Shown here: in pieces, positions 32,775 through 39,253 of the stretch | Layout of the letters: each line of letters begins with the position of its first letter | Numbering within the stretch: position 1 is the first letter of the stretch | Made by a program: the position numbers and the translations under genes | The notes under the pieces: model-generated | Databases searched by the model: none | Seen by the model: only the letters and a program-made list of their open reading frames with translations | Told to the model about the DNA's origin: nothing | NCBI GenBank assembly: GCA_963801165.1 | Contig: CAWDDT010000003.1 | Span: 96,001 to 160,000 of the forward strand | DNA length: 64,000 nucleotides | Direction of reading: 5' to 3' | From: an uncultured bacterium | GTDB taxonomy: Bacteria; Actinomycetota; Acidimicrobiia; Spongiisociales; UBA5794

Positions 32775-33743
32775 TCAGACCCGGACGAGGAGCTTTCCCC
32801 TGGCGCGGCCCGACGCCAGATAGCCGATGGCTTCGGGGACGGACTCGAGTGTGTACACCCGGTCGATGATCGGCCGGACCTCTCCCGTGATCATCATCGT
32901 GCCGAGCGTTGCCAGATCCTCCGCCTTGCTCGGTGCCCAGCCAAACACACCCATGCGCTTGGTCCCCAGTGCTGAGACGAGGGCGCCGCCGACCGCCGCC
33001 TGCACGAAACCCGCCATGGTTGCCGCGATCAACACGTACGCACCGTGCCGGCGAAGAATGCGCCGGAAGCGAAACACAGACCGGGTGGCGGCCATGTCGA
33101 CTATGAGGTCGTAGCGTTCGCCGCTTCGGGTGATATCGGTTCTTGTGTAGTCGACAACGTGGTCGGCGCCTGCCCTGGTCATCAGCTCCAGCTTGTCCGT
33201 GTGGTCGACGCCGGTCACCTCGGCGCCGAACGCCTTCGCCAGTTGGATCGCAAAGGGTCCGACACAGCCACCGGCCCCGTTCACCAGCACCCGGCTGCCG
33301 GGCTCGATCCGGCCCTTGCCGTCGAGTGCCTGGAGGGCAAGGACGGCCGAGTGCGGAGCGGTGGCGGCCGTTTCGAAGTCGAGTTCGTCGGGGAACCGGG
33401 AGAACACCCACGCCGGCGCGGACACATACTCGGCAAACGCACCAAACCGGCCGTACACGTCTCCCCAGACGCGGTCGCCGGGCTGCAACGTGGTCACACC
33501 CGGACCAACCTCAACCACTTCTCCTGCGACGTCCAGGCCGAGTGTCGGCGATTTCGGTTTGGTCAGGCCAGTCATGAGCCGGCTCACGGCCGGCTTCCCC
33601 CGCAGGTTGTCGAGGTCGGCGGTATTGATCGACGTTGCCCGCACCCTCACCAGCACCTCGCCGTCGCCCGGGACGGGATCGGGAACATCGGTGAACCGGA
33701 GCACATCCGCCGAGCCGTACCGGCTGCGCACAATCGCCTTCAT
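32775..33743 (-). CDS. MDR-family NAD(P)-dependent oxidoreductase (zinc-independent, quinone-reductase-like)
   Basis: MKAIV..YG, GLDVAGEV, NGAGGCVG and GRARGKL motifs; no zinc-binding Cys cluster. Confidence 0.85.
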   Translation of the reverse strand: MKAIVRSRYGSADVLRFTDVPDPVPGDGEVLVRVRATSINTADLDNLRGKPAVSRLMTGLTKPKSPTLGLDVAGEVVEVGPGVTTLQPGDRVWGDVYGRFGAFAEYVSAPAWVFSRFPDELDFETAATAPHSAVLALQALDGKGRIEPGSRVLVNGAGGCVGPFAIQLAKAFGAEVTGVDHTDKLELMTRAGADHVVDYTRTDITRSGERYDLIVDMAATRSVFRFRRILRRHGAYVLIAATMAGFVQAAVGGALVSALGTKRMGVFGWAPSKAEDLATLGTMMITGEVRPIIDRVYTLESVPEAIGYLASGRARGKLLVRV

Positions 33744-33804
33744 TGTTTCCTCCGCCGCTGGATCTCGGGGCTCAGCTTAACCATACAGCGTAAGGTTGGT
33801 CGAG

Positions 33805-35598
33805 TTAGGGGTCACCGCGCCATTCCCGTTTGGGTGCGGGTGAGACGTCGTCGCCCCTGATGTCGGCCAGCGCATGCGCGATCGTCTCGAGCCGGCCCAG
33901 GGTCTCCTCCAGCTGTGCGGTGAGACGGGCGATGTCCGCTTCCGGTTGGGTGCGACGGGATCGGGCCCTATCGACCCCACGGTGAAGGCTGCCCAGCGTG
34001 TCATCAAGCCTGGCGGCAAGCTCTCCCGTCAGTTCGATCCGGCCCCGTTCGAGCCGTTGGTAGAAGTCCCAGCGGAGCCGGCCACAGTGTTTGTCGACCA
34101 GGAGCGGGATGTCCTCTTCGAGCTTGCTACGCAGCATCCTCCTCGCCAGGCGCGTTGGGGCATTCCGGCGGATTGCGGCGACCGTCATCTCGAGTGAATC
34201 GGGCGGATCGAAGAAGGCAAACGTGAACCCAGACTCCGTCGTGAAGGTTTCCCCGAGTGGAGGAGGGGATAGCTCGACGTCGAGGAGCTCGGCGCAGAGT
34301 TGGGTCGTCCGTTCCACCAGGGCGTCGGTCTCTTTCGAGAACCGTCGCGTCGCGTCCCGAAAGAGATCACCGATCCTGGCCCCTTCAGCCTCACGCCAAT
34401 GGTTGATGGATTGCCGTAGTGATTCCTTGACCGCGTTGTCGAACTCGTCGGCAGCGGCGCGGGGACTCGGGTGAACTTCAAGCCGTTGGCGAGCTTCAGC
34501 GAGCAGACGCTCGGTTTCGGAGGGGCGGAGTGTTGCCAGATCGGCCTCGACGGTCGCGACCAATTGCCGTGTCTCCATTTCGAGGAGCGCCTCCAGGTCG
34601 CGGCGCGACTCGCCCGCCCGCTCCGCGACCTCTTCGAGGCCGGCAACGAGCGTCGCCAGCTCGTCCACAGGTCGCCGCAGCGTCTCCTGCTCGACACGAA
34701 CTGCGTTGATCTCGTCGGCCGCAAGACGTGCCGCGGCGATGGCGACCGATTGGCTCAGGACGGCCGTCTTCTCATCAACCAGGAATGCGCCGAAGTCGTG
34801 CTCGAAACGAAAGAAACCGGATGCGTCCGGGTCGGCATCGTCGGCCCGCCGCTTGGCGCGAAGGGCGGCGAGGGCACTAACGGGGTAGACGACGATTTCC
34901 TGCCCGACGGCGTCGCCAAGCGCCCTCGTCGCAAAAGCGACGACCTCCGCGGCGTCTGCCGGTTGCAGGATGTCGATCTTGTTGAGCACGAAGAACATCC
35001 GGGCGGCGCTATCACTCACCTCCTCGAGAAACAGACGTTCGGTATGCGACACCGGCTGATCGGCGGCGGTCACGAAAACGGCTGCGTCGACCTCGGAGAG
35101 GAACCGTTTGGTCGTTTCCGTGTTGTGGTGGTGGATGCTGCCGACGCCCGGCGTGTCGACCAGCCGTACCCCCGCCGCTAGTGGTGCTGCGGGATGCTCC
35201 ACCAGGACGTGGGCGACGTTGAGTCGGTTCTCCGGGTTCTCACGCTCGGTGACGAATGCCGGTAGCTGGTCGATCCCGACAACCCGGGAAGTCCCATCCT
35301 CGAACGTGACTTCGGCTCGAGGTTGATGGCCGTAGGTGGCCGTGCTGACCACCGCCGTCACCGGGACCGCCCCCACCGGAAAGACCTCTGCGCCGAGCAA
35401 CGCATTCACGAATGTCGACTTGCCGCGCTTGAACTCACCGACCACCGCCACGACGAAACGCTGCTCCGCGAGCTTGGCGGTGAGCGCGGCAGCACCCCGA
35501 GCCAGGCCCGGCGAGTCACGATCCGTTCCGAGCGTGGCCAGCTCGCTGAGGATGTCGTCGAGCTCACTGTGAACGGGGGCGATACCCATACCGCTCAT
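33805..35598 (-). CDS. Bacterial dynamin-like GTPase
   Basis: G1 GEFKRGKS, G2 PVT, G3 DTPG, G4 NKID, then VSA and a long helical C-terminus; 597 aa. Confidence 0.85.
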   Translation of the reverse strand: MSGMGIAPVHSELDDILSELATLGTDRDSPGLARGAAALTAKLAEQRFVVAVVGEFKRGKSTFVNALLGAEVFPVGAVPVTAVVSTATYGHQPRAEVTFEDGTSRVVGIDQLPAFVTERENPENRLNVAHVLVEHPAAPLAAGVRLVDTPGVGSIHHHNTETTKRFLSEVDAAVFVTAADQPVSHTERLFLEEVSDSAARMFFVLNKIDILQPADAAEVVAFATRALGDAVGQEIVVYPVSALAALRAKRRADDADPDASGFFRFEHDFGAFLVDEKTAVLSQSVAIAAARLAADEINAVRVEQETLRRPVDELATLVAGLEEVAERAGESRRDLEALLEMETRQLVATVEADLATLRPSETERLLAEARQRLEVHPSPRAAADEFDNAVKESLRQSINHWREAEGARIGDLFRDATRRFSKETDALVERTTQLCAELLDVELSPPPLGETFTTESGFTFAFFDPPDSLEMTVAAIRRNAPTRLARRMLRSKLEEDIPLLVDKHCGRLRWDFYQRLERGRIELTGELAARLDDTLGSLHRGVDRARSRRTQPEADIARLTAQLEETLGRLETIAHALADIRGDDVSPAPKREWRGDP

Positions 35599-35714
35599 CG
35601 GCTACCCGCTGTCGGGCGCGGTGGGCTGCTGAGGATTATCCGGTCGCCCGGATGATGAAGTGTCACGTCGATGACGACTATGAACCTTGCTTCGAGGAAC
35701 CTGCCGTGACTCAT
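35595..35714 (-). CDS. 39-aa upstream ORF coupled to the dynamin-like gene
   Basis: GGGAG SD, then ATG at 35714: MSHGRFLEARFIVVIDVTLHHPGDRIILSSPPRPTAGSR*. Its TGA overlaps the dynamin ATG (ATGA). Confidence 0.45.
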   Translation of the reverse strand: MSHGRFLEARFIVVIDVTLHHPGDRIILSSPPRPTAGSR

Positions 35715-35737
35715 CTGCTCCCACCGGTCGACTGTCG

Positions 35738-35807
35738 GTAGAAGCCATCAGCTGCGAGCCGCTTCGATAGAGCGGCGGCCGCAGCGGTTCCGGCGGGCCT
35801 CATCGCC
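35738..35807 (-). ncRNA. Fluoride riboswitch (crcB motif) upstream of the dynamin-like gene
   Basis: Minus strand GGCGATGAGGCCCGCC-GG-AACCGC-TGCG...CGCA-GCTGATGGCTTCTAC fits the aptamer consensus, including pseudoknot pairing GAGGCC/GGCTTC. Confidence 0.9.
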
Positions 35808-35987
35808 TCGGCCCACAACGATAGTCGGCCCGGTCGCCGGTACATGCTACGAACGTCGTCACCGCCCGGGGCGTCCTGTGGCCTCCCGGTCATGCACATT
35901 CGGACACTCGATGATTCAGCGGTGAATGTTCGCGGCGGCCGGCACTCGTGCGGGCAACTAGTCCAACCGCTGTGCCACGGTTGCGGC

Positions 35988-36761
35988 TCAGCTCGACAGA
36001 GCAATCTGAATCTCACGAGGGCTCTCCTCGTGGTTCGATCCGGTGAGTCGGACCTGCCAGCTGCCCGCGAGCATCTCCGCCAGATCCTCGGCCGTGGCCG
36101 GGTCGGCGGCCGACTCGAGCAAGTGACGGACGACCTCGCCCCGCACCCGTTTTGCCGTGTGGCCGTCCGCGCCCCTCCGACCGTCGGGGCGGAGCACCCG
36201 GATCGACACCAGCCTGCGGCCGATGCCCTGTGGCATCCCCATCGCCAGATAGCTGGAGGACCGGCAGTCGACCACGAGACCGTCTGCTCCCGCCGCCGCC
36301 GTCAGGACGGGTCCGAGCACAGGCCGCCACAGCGGTTCGAGGGCCTCGAGATCAAGCAAGTTGGCGCAGATGTTGAGCCGGTACGGCGGGATACGATCAC
36401 GGGGTCGGAGCGCGCCCCACAGCGAGGACACAATGACGAGTCGAGACCCGGCTCGCCTCCGCGCGGTCGTCGACAGCGATCCCGGGTCGAGGGCGGCGAA
36501 CAAGGCCCCGGTGTAAGTCTCGAGCGCCGGTCTCGTGGGGATAGTCGCAAGGCTGATGTTTCGTTCCACCTCGGCGGCCAGCGTCTTTCCGACGAGCAAC
36601 CGGGACGGAGCGTCGGATCTGGCGCTGGTCGCGACAAGAGCGGCCAGCACACGCTCCCGCGTCGGATTGAGCTCGGGGAATGAGAGAGCGCCTATATCGA
36701 GCGGGCGGCCGCGCCGCGGCGCCGGGTTCTTCGATTCCGAAGGTGGCAGCAGAACGATCAC
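35988..36761 (-). CDS. yaaA: YaaA/DUF328 peroxide-stress protein
   Basis: LLPPSESK, YTGALF, SSLWG, IPPYRL, DCRSSSY and AKRVRG motifs. Confidence 0.8.
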   Translation of the reverse strand: MIVLLPPSESKNPAPRRGRPLDIGALSFPELNPTRERVLAALVATSARSDAPSRLLVGKTLAAEVERNISLATIPTRPALETYTGALFAALDPGSLSTTARRRAGSRLVIVSSLWGALRPRDRIPPYRLNICANLLDLEALEPLWRPVLGPVLTAAAGADGLVVDCRSSSYLAMGMPQGIGRRLVSIRVLRPDGRRGADGHTAKRVRGEVVRHLLESAADPATAEDLAEMLAGSWQVRLTGSNHEESPREIQIALSS

Positions 36762-37404: not shown

Positions 37405-37785
37405 TCAGGAGCCCTGGCCGCCTCGATTCAGCGAAAACTCCAGCACCTGGATAAGACGGATGTTGTTGCCGGACGGGTCACGAAACGAGGTGTCGATCCC
37501 GTAAGCCTGCTCGGTCGGCGGAGACCCGAGGCTGGTGAGCCCGACCGCAAAACAGATATCGGTCACCGCCCAGTCGGTGTTGCGCAGCAACGCGGCGGCC
37601 CGCTCGAGACGGCGGGTGAGCAGGTACTGATGGGGTGCTTCACCAAAGGCATCGCGGAACTGCCGGCTGAAGTGGGCGCGCGACATTCCTGCGGCTCTGG
37701 CCAGATCGGAGACCGTCAGAGGCTCGAAGTCGCGTGCGTCCGCGAGGTCCTTCGCAGCCAGGAGGTACCGGGTCGCCGTAACCAT
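37405..37785 (-). pseudogene. Deletion fusion of an AraC N-part and a VOC C-terminus
   Basis: AraC sequence LARAAGMSRAHFSRQF...ICFAVGLTSLGS stops inside the second HTH and runs into PTEQAYGIDTSFRDPSGNNIRL. Confidence 0.7.
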
Positions 37786-38048
37786 TTGGTGATTGTCGCA
37801 GATGTCCGATGCCGGATAGGCGTTTCGGATATCTTCCTCGCGGCCCGGGTCTCGACCAGAATCCAGGTTGTGGACCAGTTTGTGATCGCAAGAACCCCGA
37901 CGAAGACAGCAGCCTGCCGTTCTTGCTCCGGCTCCCCATAGAGGGTGGTCTGGTGCCTCAAAGCCCCGCGAGGACTCACCGGGTCGAGGGCGGCTGGCCA
38001 CAGAGCATCGAGCCGGAAGGGTGAGCCTCTCGCCTACAATGCCGGAGC

Positions 38049-38095
38049 GGCGATGGAGCTCGCCCCAACTGCCGACGCCGGCTGATGGCTCCTGC
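38049..38095 (+). ncRNA. Fluoride riboswitch upstream of crcB
   Basis: GGCGATGGAGCTCGCC-CC-AACTGCCG-ACGC-CGGCTGATGGCTCCTGC; -10-like TACAAT at 38035-38040. Confidence 0.92.
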
Positions 38096-38118
38096 AAACC
38101 GATAACAGGCAGGAGACC

Positions 38119-38547
38119 ATGCCGGCACGCAGCACCCCAGTTCCACGTCGCTCTCGTCGGCGTTCGGTGCAAGATCTACCGGCTCCCTTAGCGGTGCTCG
38201 GTGGTGGTCTCATCGGGTCGGCGGCGCGGGCCGCCGTCGGCGCCGCATTTCCTGTGGCTGTAGGGGCGTTCCCGGCAACGACCCTCTTGGTGAACCTCGC
38301 GGGGTCGCTATTGCTGGGTCTGTTCCTGGCACGCAGGCAGCGAGCCGTCACCCGGCGTTGGTCGCTGCGCTTCTGGGCTATCGGCGCACTTGGCTCTTTC
38401 ACCACGTTCTCGACGTTCAGTGTCGAGGTGTTCCGTCTTCTCGACAGACAAGCATGGGCATCGGCTTGCGGGTACGTGCTCGCCTCGATCCTCTTCGGCC
38501 TCGGGGCCGCGGTGATCGGGCAGCGCTTGGGGCGGGTGGGGAGATGA
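38119..38547 (+). CDS. crcB: Fluoride channel FluC/CrcB, subunit 1
   Basis: GGLIGSAAR, TLLVNLAGS and GALGSFTTFSTFSVE motifs. Confidence 0.9.
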   Translation: MPARSTPVPRRSRRRSVQDLPAPLAVLGGGLIGSAARAAVGAAFPVAVGAFPATTLLVNLAGSLLLGLFLARRQRAVTRRWSLRFWAIGALGSFTTFSTFSVEVFRLLDRQAWASACGYVLASILFGLGAAVIGQRLGRVGR

Positions 38548-38894
38548 CGGTCTTCGTCGCTGCCCTGACCGGCTCGGTAGGCGCCCTAGCCCGGTATCTG
38601 CTTTCGGGGGCGCTACAGAACCGGAGCCGTACGACATTGCCGATCGGCACGGCCGGGGTGAACCTGCTCGGGGCGTTGCTGCTCGGGCTCATCGTGGGGG
38701 CGAGCGACGGCTCGCTGCTGTGGACGGCGGCAGCCGGTTTCACCGGCGGGCTCAGCACGTTCTCCACATGGATGGTCGAGACGATCGGTCTCGGGATTGT
38801 CCCCAAACCGTCGTTTCGGGCCGTCGCCAACCTCCTCATCGTGGCAACATTGGGCGTGGCGCTGGCCGCGCTCGGGTATCACATCACCAACTGA
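38544..38894 (+). CDS. crcB: Fluoride channel FluC/CrcB, subunit 2
   Basis: GSVGALARY, GTAGVNLLG and GFTGGLSTFSTW motifs; ATGA overlap. Confidence 0.9.
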   Translation: MTVFVAALTGSVGALARYLLSGALQNRSRTTLPIGTAGVNLLGALLLGLIVGASDGSLLWTAAAGFTGGLSTFSTWMVETIGLGIVPKPSFRAVANLLIVATLGVALAALGYHITN

Positions 38895-38908
38895 AAGCGA
38901 GGCGTCCC

Positions 38909-39253
38909 GTGAATCACGAATCCGACAGCCGACTTCTGCGCATCTTCGTTGGTGAGTCCGATACCTACGACGGTCGGCCGCTTTATCAAGCGATCGTCGA
39001 GGTGTTGCGCAAGGAAGGCGTCGCCGGAGCAACCGTCCTGCGGGGGATCGAAGGATTCGGCAAGTCGAGCCATTTGCACACCGCCCACATCCTGCGGCTC
39101 TCGGATGACCTTCCGATGGTGATCGAATGCGTCGACACCTATGAGAAGATCGAGTCGGTGTTCCCGACCCTCGATGCGATGATCGGCGACGGCCTGGTGA
39201 CCATGGAGCGTGTCGACGTTTGGGTCTACCGTGCCGGCGAGAAGCGCCGGTGA
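38909..39253 (+). CDS. DUF190 (PII-like) protein
   Basis: LLRIFVGESD, AGATVLRGIEGFG and LSDDLPMVIE motifs; usual crcB neighbour. Confidence 0.9.
   Translation: MNHESDSRLLRIFVGESDTYDGRPLYQAIVEVLRKEGVAGATVLRGIEGFGKSSHLHTAHILRLSDDLPMVIECVDTYEKIESVFPTLDAMIGDGLVTMERVDVWVYRAGEKRR

Follow-up and report, generated by a model that had tools for sequence, protein, structure and literature searches.

A fluoride riboswitch upstream of a solitary bacterial dynamin-like GTPase gene, and its recurrence in a family of related loci

Though fluoride riboswitches are a known class, the one described here stands in front of a target class that appears, as far as the literature was searched, to be undescribed: a gene for a bacterial dynamin-like GTPase. 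It was found in the genome of an uncultured actinobacterium (Acidimicrobiia, UBA5794), within a stretch of 64,000 nucleotides (nt) that we call the window (assembly GCA_963801165.1, contig CAWDDT010000003.1, positions 96,001 to 160,000). We favour, with a probability of about 0.6, the interpretation that aptamer and gene form a unit turned on by fluoride, with a solitary dynamin-like GTPase as its output. The elements of the unit, in positions of the window, are:

35732-35816, minus strand: aptamer of the fluoride riboswitch (RF01734, crcB motif), 41.2 bits, its P3 loop enlarged by an insertion of 24 nt
35717-35745, minus strand: expression-platform hairpin of 10 base pairs (bp), overlapping the pseudoknot 3′ strand and the ribosome-binding site
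35595-35714, minus strand: leader open reading frame (ORF) of 39 codons, starting 2 nt after the hairpin and with its stop overlapping the GTPase start
33805-35598, minus strand: bacterial dynamin-like GTPase of the BDLP/IniA type, 597 amino acids (aa), Pfam Dynamin_N

When the window is searched with the Rfam covariance model RF01734, two fluoride aptamers are found, one on each strand. The score of the minus-strand match compares with a gathering score of 34 (E 5.3e-08), the match extends over the full model (positions 1-64), and its core is the segment 35807-35738 in which an earlier note on this DNA had recognised a fluoride aptamer. A second covariance model, R1, built for the comparison of loci described below, gives it 51.8 bits, a value obtained with a training set that included this same aptamer. 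All positions of the pseudoknot (5/5) are paired, and both of its sides have changed relative to the consensus in a compensatory manner. We regard it as virtually certain that this aptamer is real. In the whole genome (4.55 Mb in 13 contigs) RF01734 has just two matches, both of them in the window.

Immediately after the aptamer lies a hairpin in which positions 35745-35736 pair with 35726-35717, including two G-U pairs, around a 9-nt loop (35735-35727). Its 5′ arm overlaps the pseudoknot-forming 3′ strand of the aptamer, and its 3′ arm contains a purine-rich ribosome-binding site 2 nt before the ATG at 35714. The hairpin is present in the minimum-free-energy folds of both the 227-nt leader and a 60-nt platform (the latter at -18.8 kcal/mol), and the 10-bp stem enclosing the Shine-Dalgarno sequence that had been drawn in the earlier note is thus recovered by folding. 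An equivalent is predicted in 8/8 relatives from the actinobacterial clade (loci L008, L009, L036 and L089-L093), where it pairs the aptamer 3′ strand with a site of the type GGT(A/G)GGAGC lying 2-13 nt before the start of the GTPase gene itself. A promoter scan returned 0 sites, which is uninformative for a high-GC organism.

This arrangement suggests how the switch would work. Without fluoride, the free 3′ strand of the pseudoknot would pair with the ribosome-binding site in the 10-bp hairpin and ribosome loading would be blocked; with fluoride, the pseudoknot would capture that strand and leave the site exposed, so that the hairpin would be the device through which switching depends on fluoride. 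We consider an ON-switch that works by sequestering the ribosome-binding site to be likely. The classical fluoride units, with RF01734 before crcB/Fluc, eriC-F/CLC-F, Na+/H+ antiporters, enolase or pyrophosphatase, have the same aptamer class and the same logic, namely competition between the 3′ strand of the pseudoknot and a downstream hairpin. Unlike them, the switch in the window would control a dynamin-like GTPase, and would do so through a leader ORF. The TGA of that ORF and the ATG of the GTPase gene overlap as ATGA at 35598-35595, and no ribosome-binding site is evident for the GTPase start itself, 117 nt past the ATG at 35714. Because the leader stop overlaps the GTPase start, the translation of the two may be coupled: the exposed site would drive the 39-codon ORF, the overlap would hand translation on to the GTPase, and a translated leader may additionally evade premature termination. 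The chances that translation is in fact relayed in this way seem to us evenly balanced. The whole arrangement of aptamer, leader and gene recurs, free of insertions or deletions (indels), on a 7285-nt contig that comes from another study and is about 96.5% identical.

The protein encoded by the gene (P0001) matches Pfam Dynamin_N with 111.5 bits (E 5.8e-32, cut-off 27), and the motifs G1-G4 are invariant in an alignment of 47 sequences of the family (G54, K57, R58, G59 and K60; T81; D148-T-P-G151; N206-K-x-D209), in agreement with the earlier description of a 39-codon ORF followed by a 597-aa GTPase with G1-G4 intact. Against solved structures, the family profile matches best the Nostoc BDLP (PDB ID: 2j68) at 1.5e-46 over residues 31-433, followed by IniA (PDB ID: 6j72) at 2e-30 and the Campylobacter pair (PDB ID: 5owv). 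An AlphaFold2 model made on the family alignment (mean predicted local distance difference test, pLDDT, of 84; predicted template modelling score, pTM, of 0.73) has N-terminal helices (6-44), a GTPase domain (about 48-250) and a helical stalk (262-582), and a conserved aromatic stretch (about 453-462) is placed by it in a low-confidence tip loop between the two longest helices. With this predicted model as query, Foldseek returns IniA first (E 4.5e-22, template modelling score 0.51-0.53) and BDLP second (5.4e-22), over about 600 columns. The cut-off is not reached for any NCBIfam model: the fused double dynamin DynA (NF052648) scores 72 bits against 1600, the window protein being a single unit, and LeoA/HP0731 (NF041922; 25.2 against 325) and CrfC (NF007368; 27 against 1146) also stay below theirs. 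Within the BDLP/IniA/mitofusin class the protein belongs to a family of its own, whose members are about 590 aa long. Outside the G motifs, T-E-x-x-N-P-x-N (residues 117-124), G-S-x-x-x-H-N-T (153-160), W401 and K-H-C-G-R-L-R-W-D (503-511, with G506, R507 and D511) are invariant or nearly so in the same 47 sequences, and could serve as markers of the subfamily.

The GTPase had been described as stand-alone, and the genome bears this out. A search with P0001 returns only itself, with no second gene like it, and Dynamin_N has one strong match, the three others being confined to model positions 1-38, a generic P-loop. By these searches it is the only true dynamin-family gene of the genome. Pairing of the IniBAC type was looked for and no second dynamin found in the genome, the neighbours being the leader ORF, a zinc dehydrogenase and yaaA.

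Two characterised proteins are closest. For P0001 alone, the best sequence match is the Nostoc punctiforme BDLP (PDB IDs: 2j68, 2j69; 1.5e-23), with which it shares ..KRGKSTF.NAL.G and DxPG; the identity is about 18% by structural alignment, the window protein is some 100 aa shorter and its tip loop is different, and we know of no riboswitch before the BDLP gene. The top structural match of the predicted model, the mycobacterial IniA (PDB ID: 6j72), is of similar length, with 17% identity and a phmmer match of 1.7e-12 confined to the GTPase domain. IniA is a stress-induced dynamin-like protein, and induction of a bacterial dynamin by a stress signal would be common to both systems; unlike IniA, the window protein has no partner resembling iniB or iniC, and its inducer would be a riboswitch rather than a protein regulator. 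In our interpretation the GTPase would bind the cytoplasmic membrane and remodel or repair it under stress from fluoride (as hydrogen fluoride, HF). That such repair or remodelling is beneficial under fluoride we put forward tentatively, at somewhat less than even odds.

We compared the gene with its relatives in 160 loci, half of them from genome_contigs (the 80 best-matching of 593 confirmed stretches) and half from metagenome_contigs (the 80 best-matching of 587). A pre-screen with a regular expression found an aptamer-like sequence just upstream of the gene in 78/159 loci; it was superseded by R1, a covariance model made from 76 of the pre-screened loci and the two aptamers of the window. 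R1 was run over all 160 loci, about 1.02 Mb of sequence, and returned 191 hits (E ≤ 0.01). Four loci with less than 120 nt of DNA upstream of the gene were set aside, and the counts refer to the remaining 156. In 106 of these 156 an aptamer (E ≤ 0.01) lies on the same strand no more than 300 nt from where the GTPase gene is estimated to start, at a median gap of 53 nt; 34 bits or more are reached by 94 of them and 40 bits or more by 91. This 300-nt zone makes up about 2.3% of the space searched, yet it holds 106 of the 191 hits. A further 22/156 loci have a same-strand aptamer 400-2850 nt upstream, and in many of these an ORF fills the gap to the GTPase start in the manner of an operon. Of the near aptamers, 33/106 lie outside the training set of R1, and 19 of these 33, with all the low scorers included, were re-tested with the Rfam model together with L088; the gathering score was reached by 8/19. 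For reasons weighed below, the count is best given as a range of about 91-106 of 156. The survey of homologues that the earlier note had named as its refuting test therefore finds an aptamer directly upstream in most loci and, by the tree described next, in 9/10 of the window's own clade. R1 hits of less than 34 bits (12 loci, among them 3/3 Binatota) were not confirmed by Rfam where tested and are not counted as aptamers; seven such matches of 19-29 bits in the right position, in L034, L045 and L074 (Binatota), L079, L044, L105 and L141, may represent either divergent or variant aptamers or spurious matches.

Pairing in the aptamers is also kept up by compensatory change. In 78 of them, 96.3% of the alignment cells in paired positions are paired, rising to 99.7% in the pseudoknot helix, where pair 14/88 is A-U in 40 cases, G-C in 38 and unpaired in 0, at positions that the regular expression used for collection did not link. 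The observed covariation score was reached by 0/500 shuffles, and sliding the partners lowers pairing to 40-57%. The 13 named phyla represented among loci whose aptamer reaches 34 bits include two archaeal ones, Methanobacteriota and Woesearchaeota. A FastTree phylogeny of 159 proteins places the window protein, with good support, in a group of 10 rows (its own among them), 9 of which are labelled as having a near aptamer; absence of the aptamer is scattered over the tree and requires at least 14 changes. Two orthologues, P0003 (80% identity) and P0004 (78%), have been called with over-long N-termini, which in the GTPase frame encode the 3′ half of the aptamer and the hairpin as QLMASTD(S/G)RPVGA, as in the window, and both therefore keep the switch. 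Chance as the cause of the aptamer-GTPase juxtaposition is excluded, and we think it highly probable that the GTPase family is truly linked to fluoride. In many phyla it recurs as part of the fluoride riboswitch regulon.

Several other explanations of the locus can be weighed against this evidence. The hairpin might act on transcription rather than translation, as a terminator without a U-tract or through exposure to Rho, with the 39-codon ORF an untranslated leader that is open by chance. The low-GC relatives give some reason to think so, for there a U-run comes after the corresponding hairpin, giving it the look of a terminator (nine T in L011); T-runs are found in L090 and L092 too, a T-run of at least four is found in the leader of 75/94 loci, and the leader ORF is neither conserved nor strongly coding. 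However, the hairpin of the window is followed by no T-run and a terminator scan of the leader found no site; its 3′ arm is a good ribosome-binding site just before an ATG; the ORF so opened ends exactly at a GTPase start that itself has no evident site; and in 8/8 high-GC relatives the same hairpin hides the GTPase start's own site. We therefore judge control of transcription unlikely here. Much less credible is that the switch formerly ruled another gene, of which the 39-codon ORF is the remnant, and that the GTPase is not controlled by fluoride at all. Though the leader ORF does sit between switch and GTPase, and the locus is unique within its genus, a relic would not account for the pairing in 91-106 of 156 loci and in the window's own clade, for the aptamer and hairpin carried by P0003 and P0004, or for the compensatory changes by which aptamers upstream of GTPase genes keep their pairing. 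The classical paired dynamin-like genes of three family-level relatives (L004-L007) have, moreover, no aptamer in the DNA examined.

Two further explanations concern what the protein does. Metal fluorides are transition-state mimics in GTPases. Since fluoride poisons GTPases, the protein might be an extra or less fluoride-sensitive enzyme, or a soak or sensor for metal fluoride, and this mimicry speaks for it. So do the riboswitch-led genes for enolase and pyrophosphatase, an accepted theme (PMC11139923), both of which occur in these loci. On the other hand, the genome has no other dynamin that it could replace, 14/14 congeners are without one, and the catalytic motifs are ordinary, being common to the Nostoc BDLP, with no feature that hints at insensitivity to fluoride; we consider this improbable. 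It is a still longer shot that fluoride acts twice, inducing the gene through the riboswitch and then, as a GDP-metal-fluoride mimic, locking the GTPase domains in the assembled state. If true, this would yield a fluoride-dependent membrane scaffold that limits damage or the entry of HF, and would explain why a dynamin was recruited to the fluoride regulon in more than a dozen phyla.

Returning to the fluoride-induced dynamin unit, a number of observations weigh against it or against parts of it. The loci were chosen by two conserved peptide motifs and ranked by similarity, and are thus not a random sample of the family. No aptamer was found in the DNA examined for 28/156 loci, and 73 of the 106 near aptamers were in the training set of R1 and match it by construction. 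Because the Rfam model left unconfirmed 11 of the 19 hits on which it was tried (nine with less than 32 bits in R1, L130 with 34.7 and L086 with 42.6), the upper count of 106 is too generous. The closest of the loci collected, L088 (53% identity), which accounts for the one row of the window's clade lacking a near aptamer in the tree, is itself without an aptamer in the DNA examined. Its apparent operon (L088:1-5282) has two genes with MutS domain V, the GTPase as the third gene and then an enolase, and since the locus ends within the first of these genes, a switch, if there is any, would lie outside the DNA examined. A published association of mutS-like genes with fluoride riboswitches is given in PMC2864571.

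The leader ORF also counts against part of the proposal. Its coding signal is weak, with a GC content by codon position of 0.60/0.53/0.65 against about 0.7/0.5/0.76-0.81 in the neighbouring genes, and both changes in it among those listed for the 96.5% identical relative are non-synonymous. From the ribosome-binding site to Met1 there are only 8 codons in P0003 but 35 in P0004, so that the length of the spacer, as read from these two predicted genes, is variable within the window's sub-clade. ORFs that end at the GTPase start out of frame are found in 12/94 loci, and the mean for shuffled sequences is 12.2, as expected by chance. A leader peptide as conserved partner of the GTPase was rejected on the basis of these counts, the short spacer of P0003 and a Pfam search that found no match. 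The earlier note had taken the regulated unit to be the 39-codon ORF plus the GTPase; comparison supports the GTPase under the riboswitch, and the ORF did not hold up as a conserved partner. By this comparison the ORF is specific to the window locus, a part of its control region rather than a feature of the family, either a local device able to relay translation or an accident, and its peptide appears to be under no evident selection.

With regard to function, the tip loop presumed to bind the membrane (440-467) is modelled with a pLDDT of less than 50, as disordered, and no transmembrane segment is predicted in the GTPase. Finally, protein and DNA searches found the GTPase absent from 14/14 congeners, several of which are only 66-82% complete, and near relatives that have retained the crcB riboswitch operon (described below) can therefore do without the gene. 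This operon, with its aptamer, is kept in two of them (G005 and G014) at 72-74% identity. As the GTPase is missing in congeners while the crcB operon persists in two, the switch-GTPase unit is best described as an accessory cassette in this lineage, a pattern that fits gain by transfer or repeated loss.

In the usual picture, the fluoride regulon exports the ion, maintains pH and ion homeostasis and supplies additional copies of enzymes that are sensitive to fluoride. In the passages considered from three papers (PMC2864571, PMC7266159, PMC11139923), the genes linked to the riboswitch are those for fluoride exporters, Na+/H+ antiporters, pyrophosphatase and enolase, as well as for haloacid-dehalogenase-like proteins, formate hydrogen lyase, mutS and K+/Cl- transport; no dynamin-like GTPase is named in these passages, and in the latter two papers (PMC7266159, PMC11139923) neither 'GTPase' nor 'dynamin' occurs. 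A search of the literature found no link between fluoride riboswitches and dynamins, though the gene tables of Baker et al. 2012 may list the family. If our interpretation is correct, a membrane-remodelling GTPase on the same switch would add a membrane branch to the fluoride response, and bacterial dynamins, whose natural triggers are mostly unknown, would gain a defined and cheap inducer for experiments. The window locus is the minimal case, with one switch, one GTPase and no partner proteins, and would make a convenient test construct. In our sample the family occurs almost exclusively in uncultured organisms, which may explain why it escaped notice: 80/80 genome records among the best 80 of 593 are metagenome-assembled, and it seems that few cultured strains carry the family. 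P0094, a homologue at 36% identity, is named after a Variovorax isolate. Several studies have yielded soil and salt-marsh metagenomes that contain near-identical DNA. A metatranscriptome run (X14) has three contigs of 151 nt (34476-34766; 35635-35785), though such contigs are no proof of transcription, and the stretches they leave uncovered carry no information.

The company kept by the switch in the related loci is that of the fluoride response. Other aptamers scoring 34 bits or more in these loci are followed by 63 ORFs, among which Pfam recognises 14 Na+/H+ exchangers, four enolases and four CrcB proteins, and more rarely MFS (2), Usp (2), DUF190 (1), DUF6062 (1) and a second dynamin (1). 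In 24/160 loci the aptamer of the GTPase gene has a second one facing away from it, some 100-200 nt further upstream and on the other strand, so that the two switches stand back to back, for instance:

L008:2729-2787, opposite to the GTPase: back-to-back aptamer
L052:2634-2697, opposite to the GTPase: back-to-back aptamer
L089:2767-2830, opposite to the GTPase: back-to-back aptamer

Genes on these divergent switches include Na+/H+ exchangers and ORFs without a Pfam match (147 aa at L008:2272-2715; 432 aa at L089:1443-2741), and in 16 loci another aptamer lies just 3′ of the GTPase gene. Downstream ORFs were defined as the longest ORF starting at most 400 nt past the GTPase stop, a crude rule applied without a gene caller. 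The 135 ORFs so obtained are diverse: enolase (9), MFS (8), AAA_16/NB-ARC-like ATPases (7), HEAT_2 (6), prenyltransferase-like toroid (6), GlnD-type uridylyltransferase with ACT (5) and H+-pyrophosphatase (3). A fixed downstream protein partner was sought among them and none emerged. In view of the aptamer-led ORFs and the varied downstream ORFs, the GTPase resides in fluoride islands without a fixed partner. A search of the genome for DUF6062 gave no match, and the control genomes gave none either, which makes it uninformative.

The window has an island of this kind, in which, as had been pointed out, a second riboswitch with crcB-crcB-DUF190 stands 2.2 kb away. The covariance and Pfam searches find the switch, two CrcB ORFs (3.8e-22 and 4.3e-17) and a DUF190 ORF. 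These and the other neighbours are:

38040-38101, plus strand: second fluoride riboswitch aptamer, RF01734, 49.3 bits, 2.2 kb away and transcribed divergently
38119-39253, plus strand: crcB-crcB-DUF190 operon (Pfam), headed by the plus-strand switch
38119-38547, plus strand: first CrcB ORF (Pfam CRCB)
within 38358-38894, plus strand: second CrcB ORF (Pfam CRCB)
within 38720-39253, plus strand: DUF190 ORF (Pfam DUF190, 3.7e-41)
37405-38172, minus strand: AraC-type regulator ORF as listed, spanning the crcB riboswitch on the opposite strand
35988-36761, minus strand: yaaA (peroxide stress protein) gene, ending 172 nt upstream of the minus-strand aptamer on the same strand
32775-33743, minus strand: zinc-type alcohol dehydrogenase / quinone oxidoreductase gene (Pfam), 62 nt 3′ of the GTPase stop

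The true starts of the second crcB gene and the DUF190 gene are probably internal to the ORFs as listed, and so probably is that of the AraC-type regulator, because its listed ORF crosses the crcB riboswitch. Transcription could possibly read through from yaaA into the minus-strand fluoride switch. At the other end of the unit, a scan of the 62-nt gap found no terminator-like site, and the dehydrogenase gene may be co-transcribed with the GTPase gene. In the same gap one base, at position 33760, is missing in contigs X5 and X6 from two other studies, the sole indel among those listed across the 2.3 kb compared.

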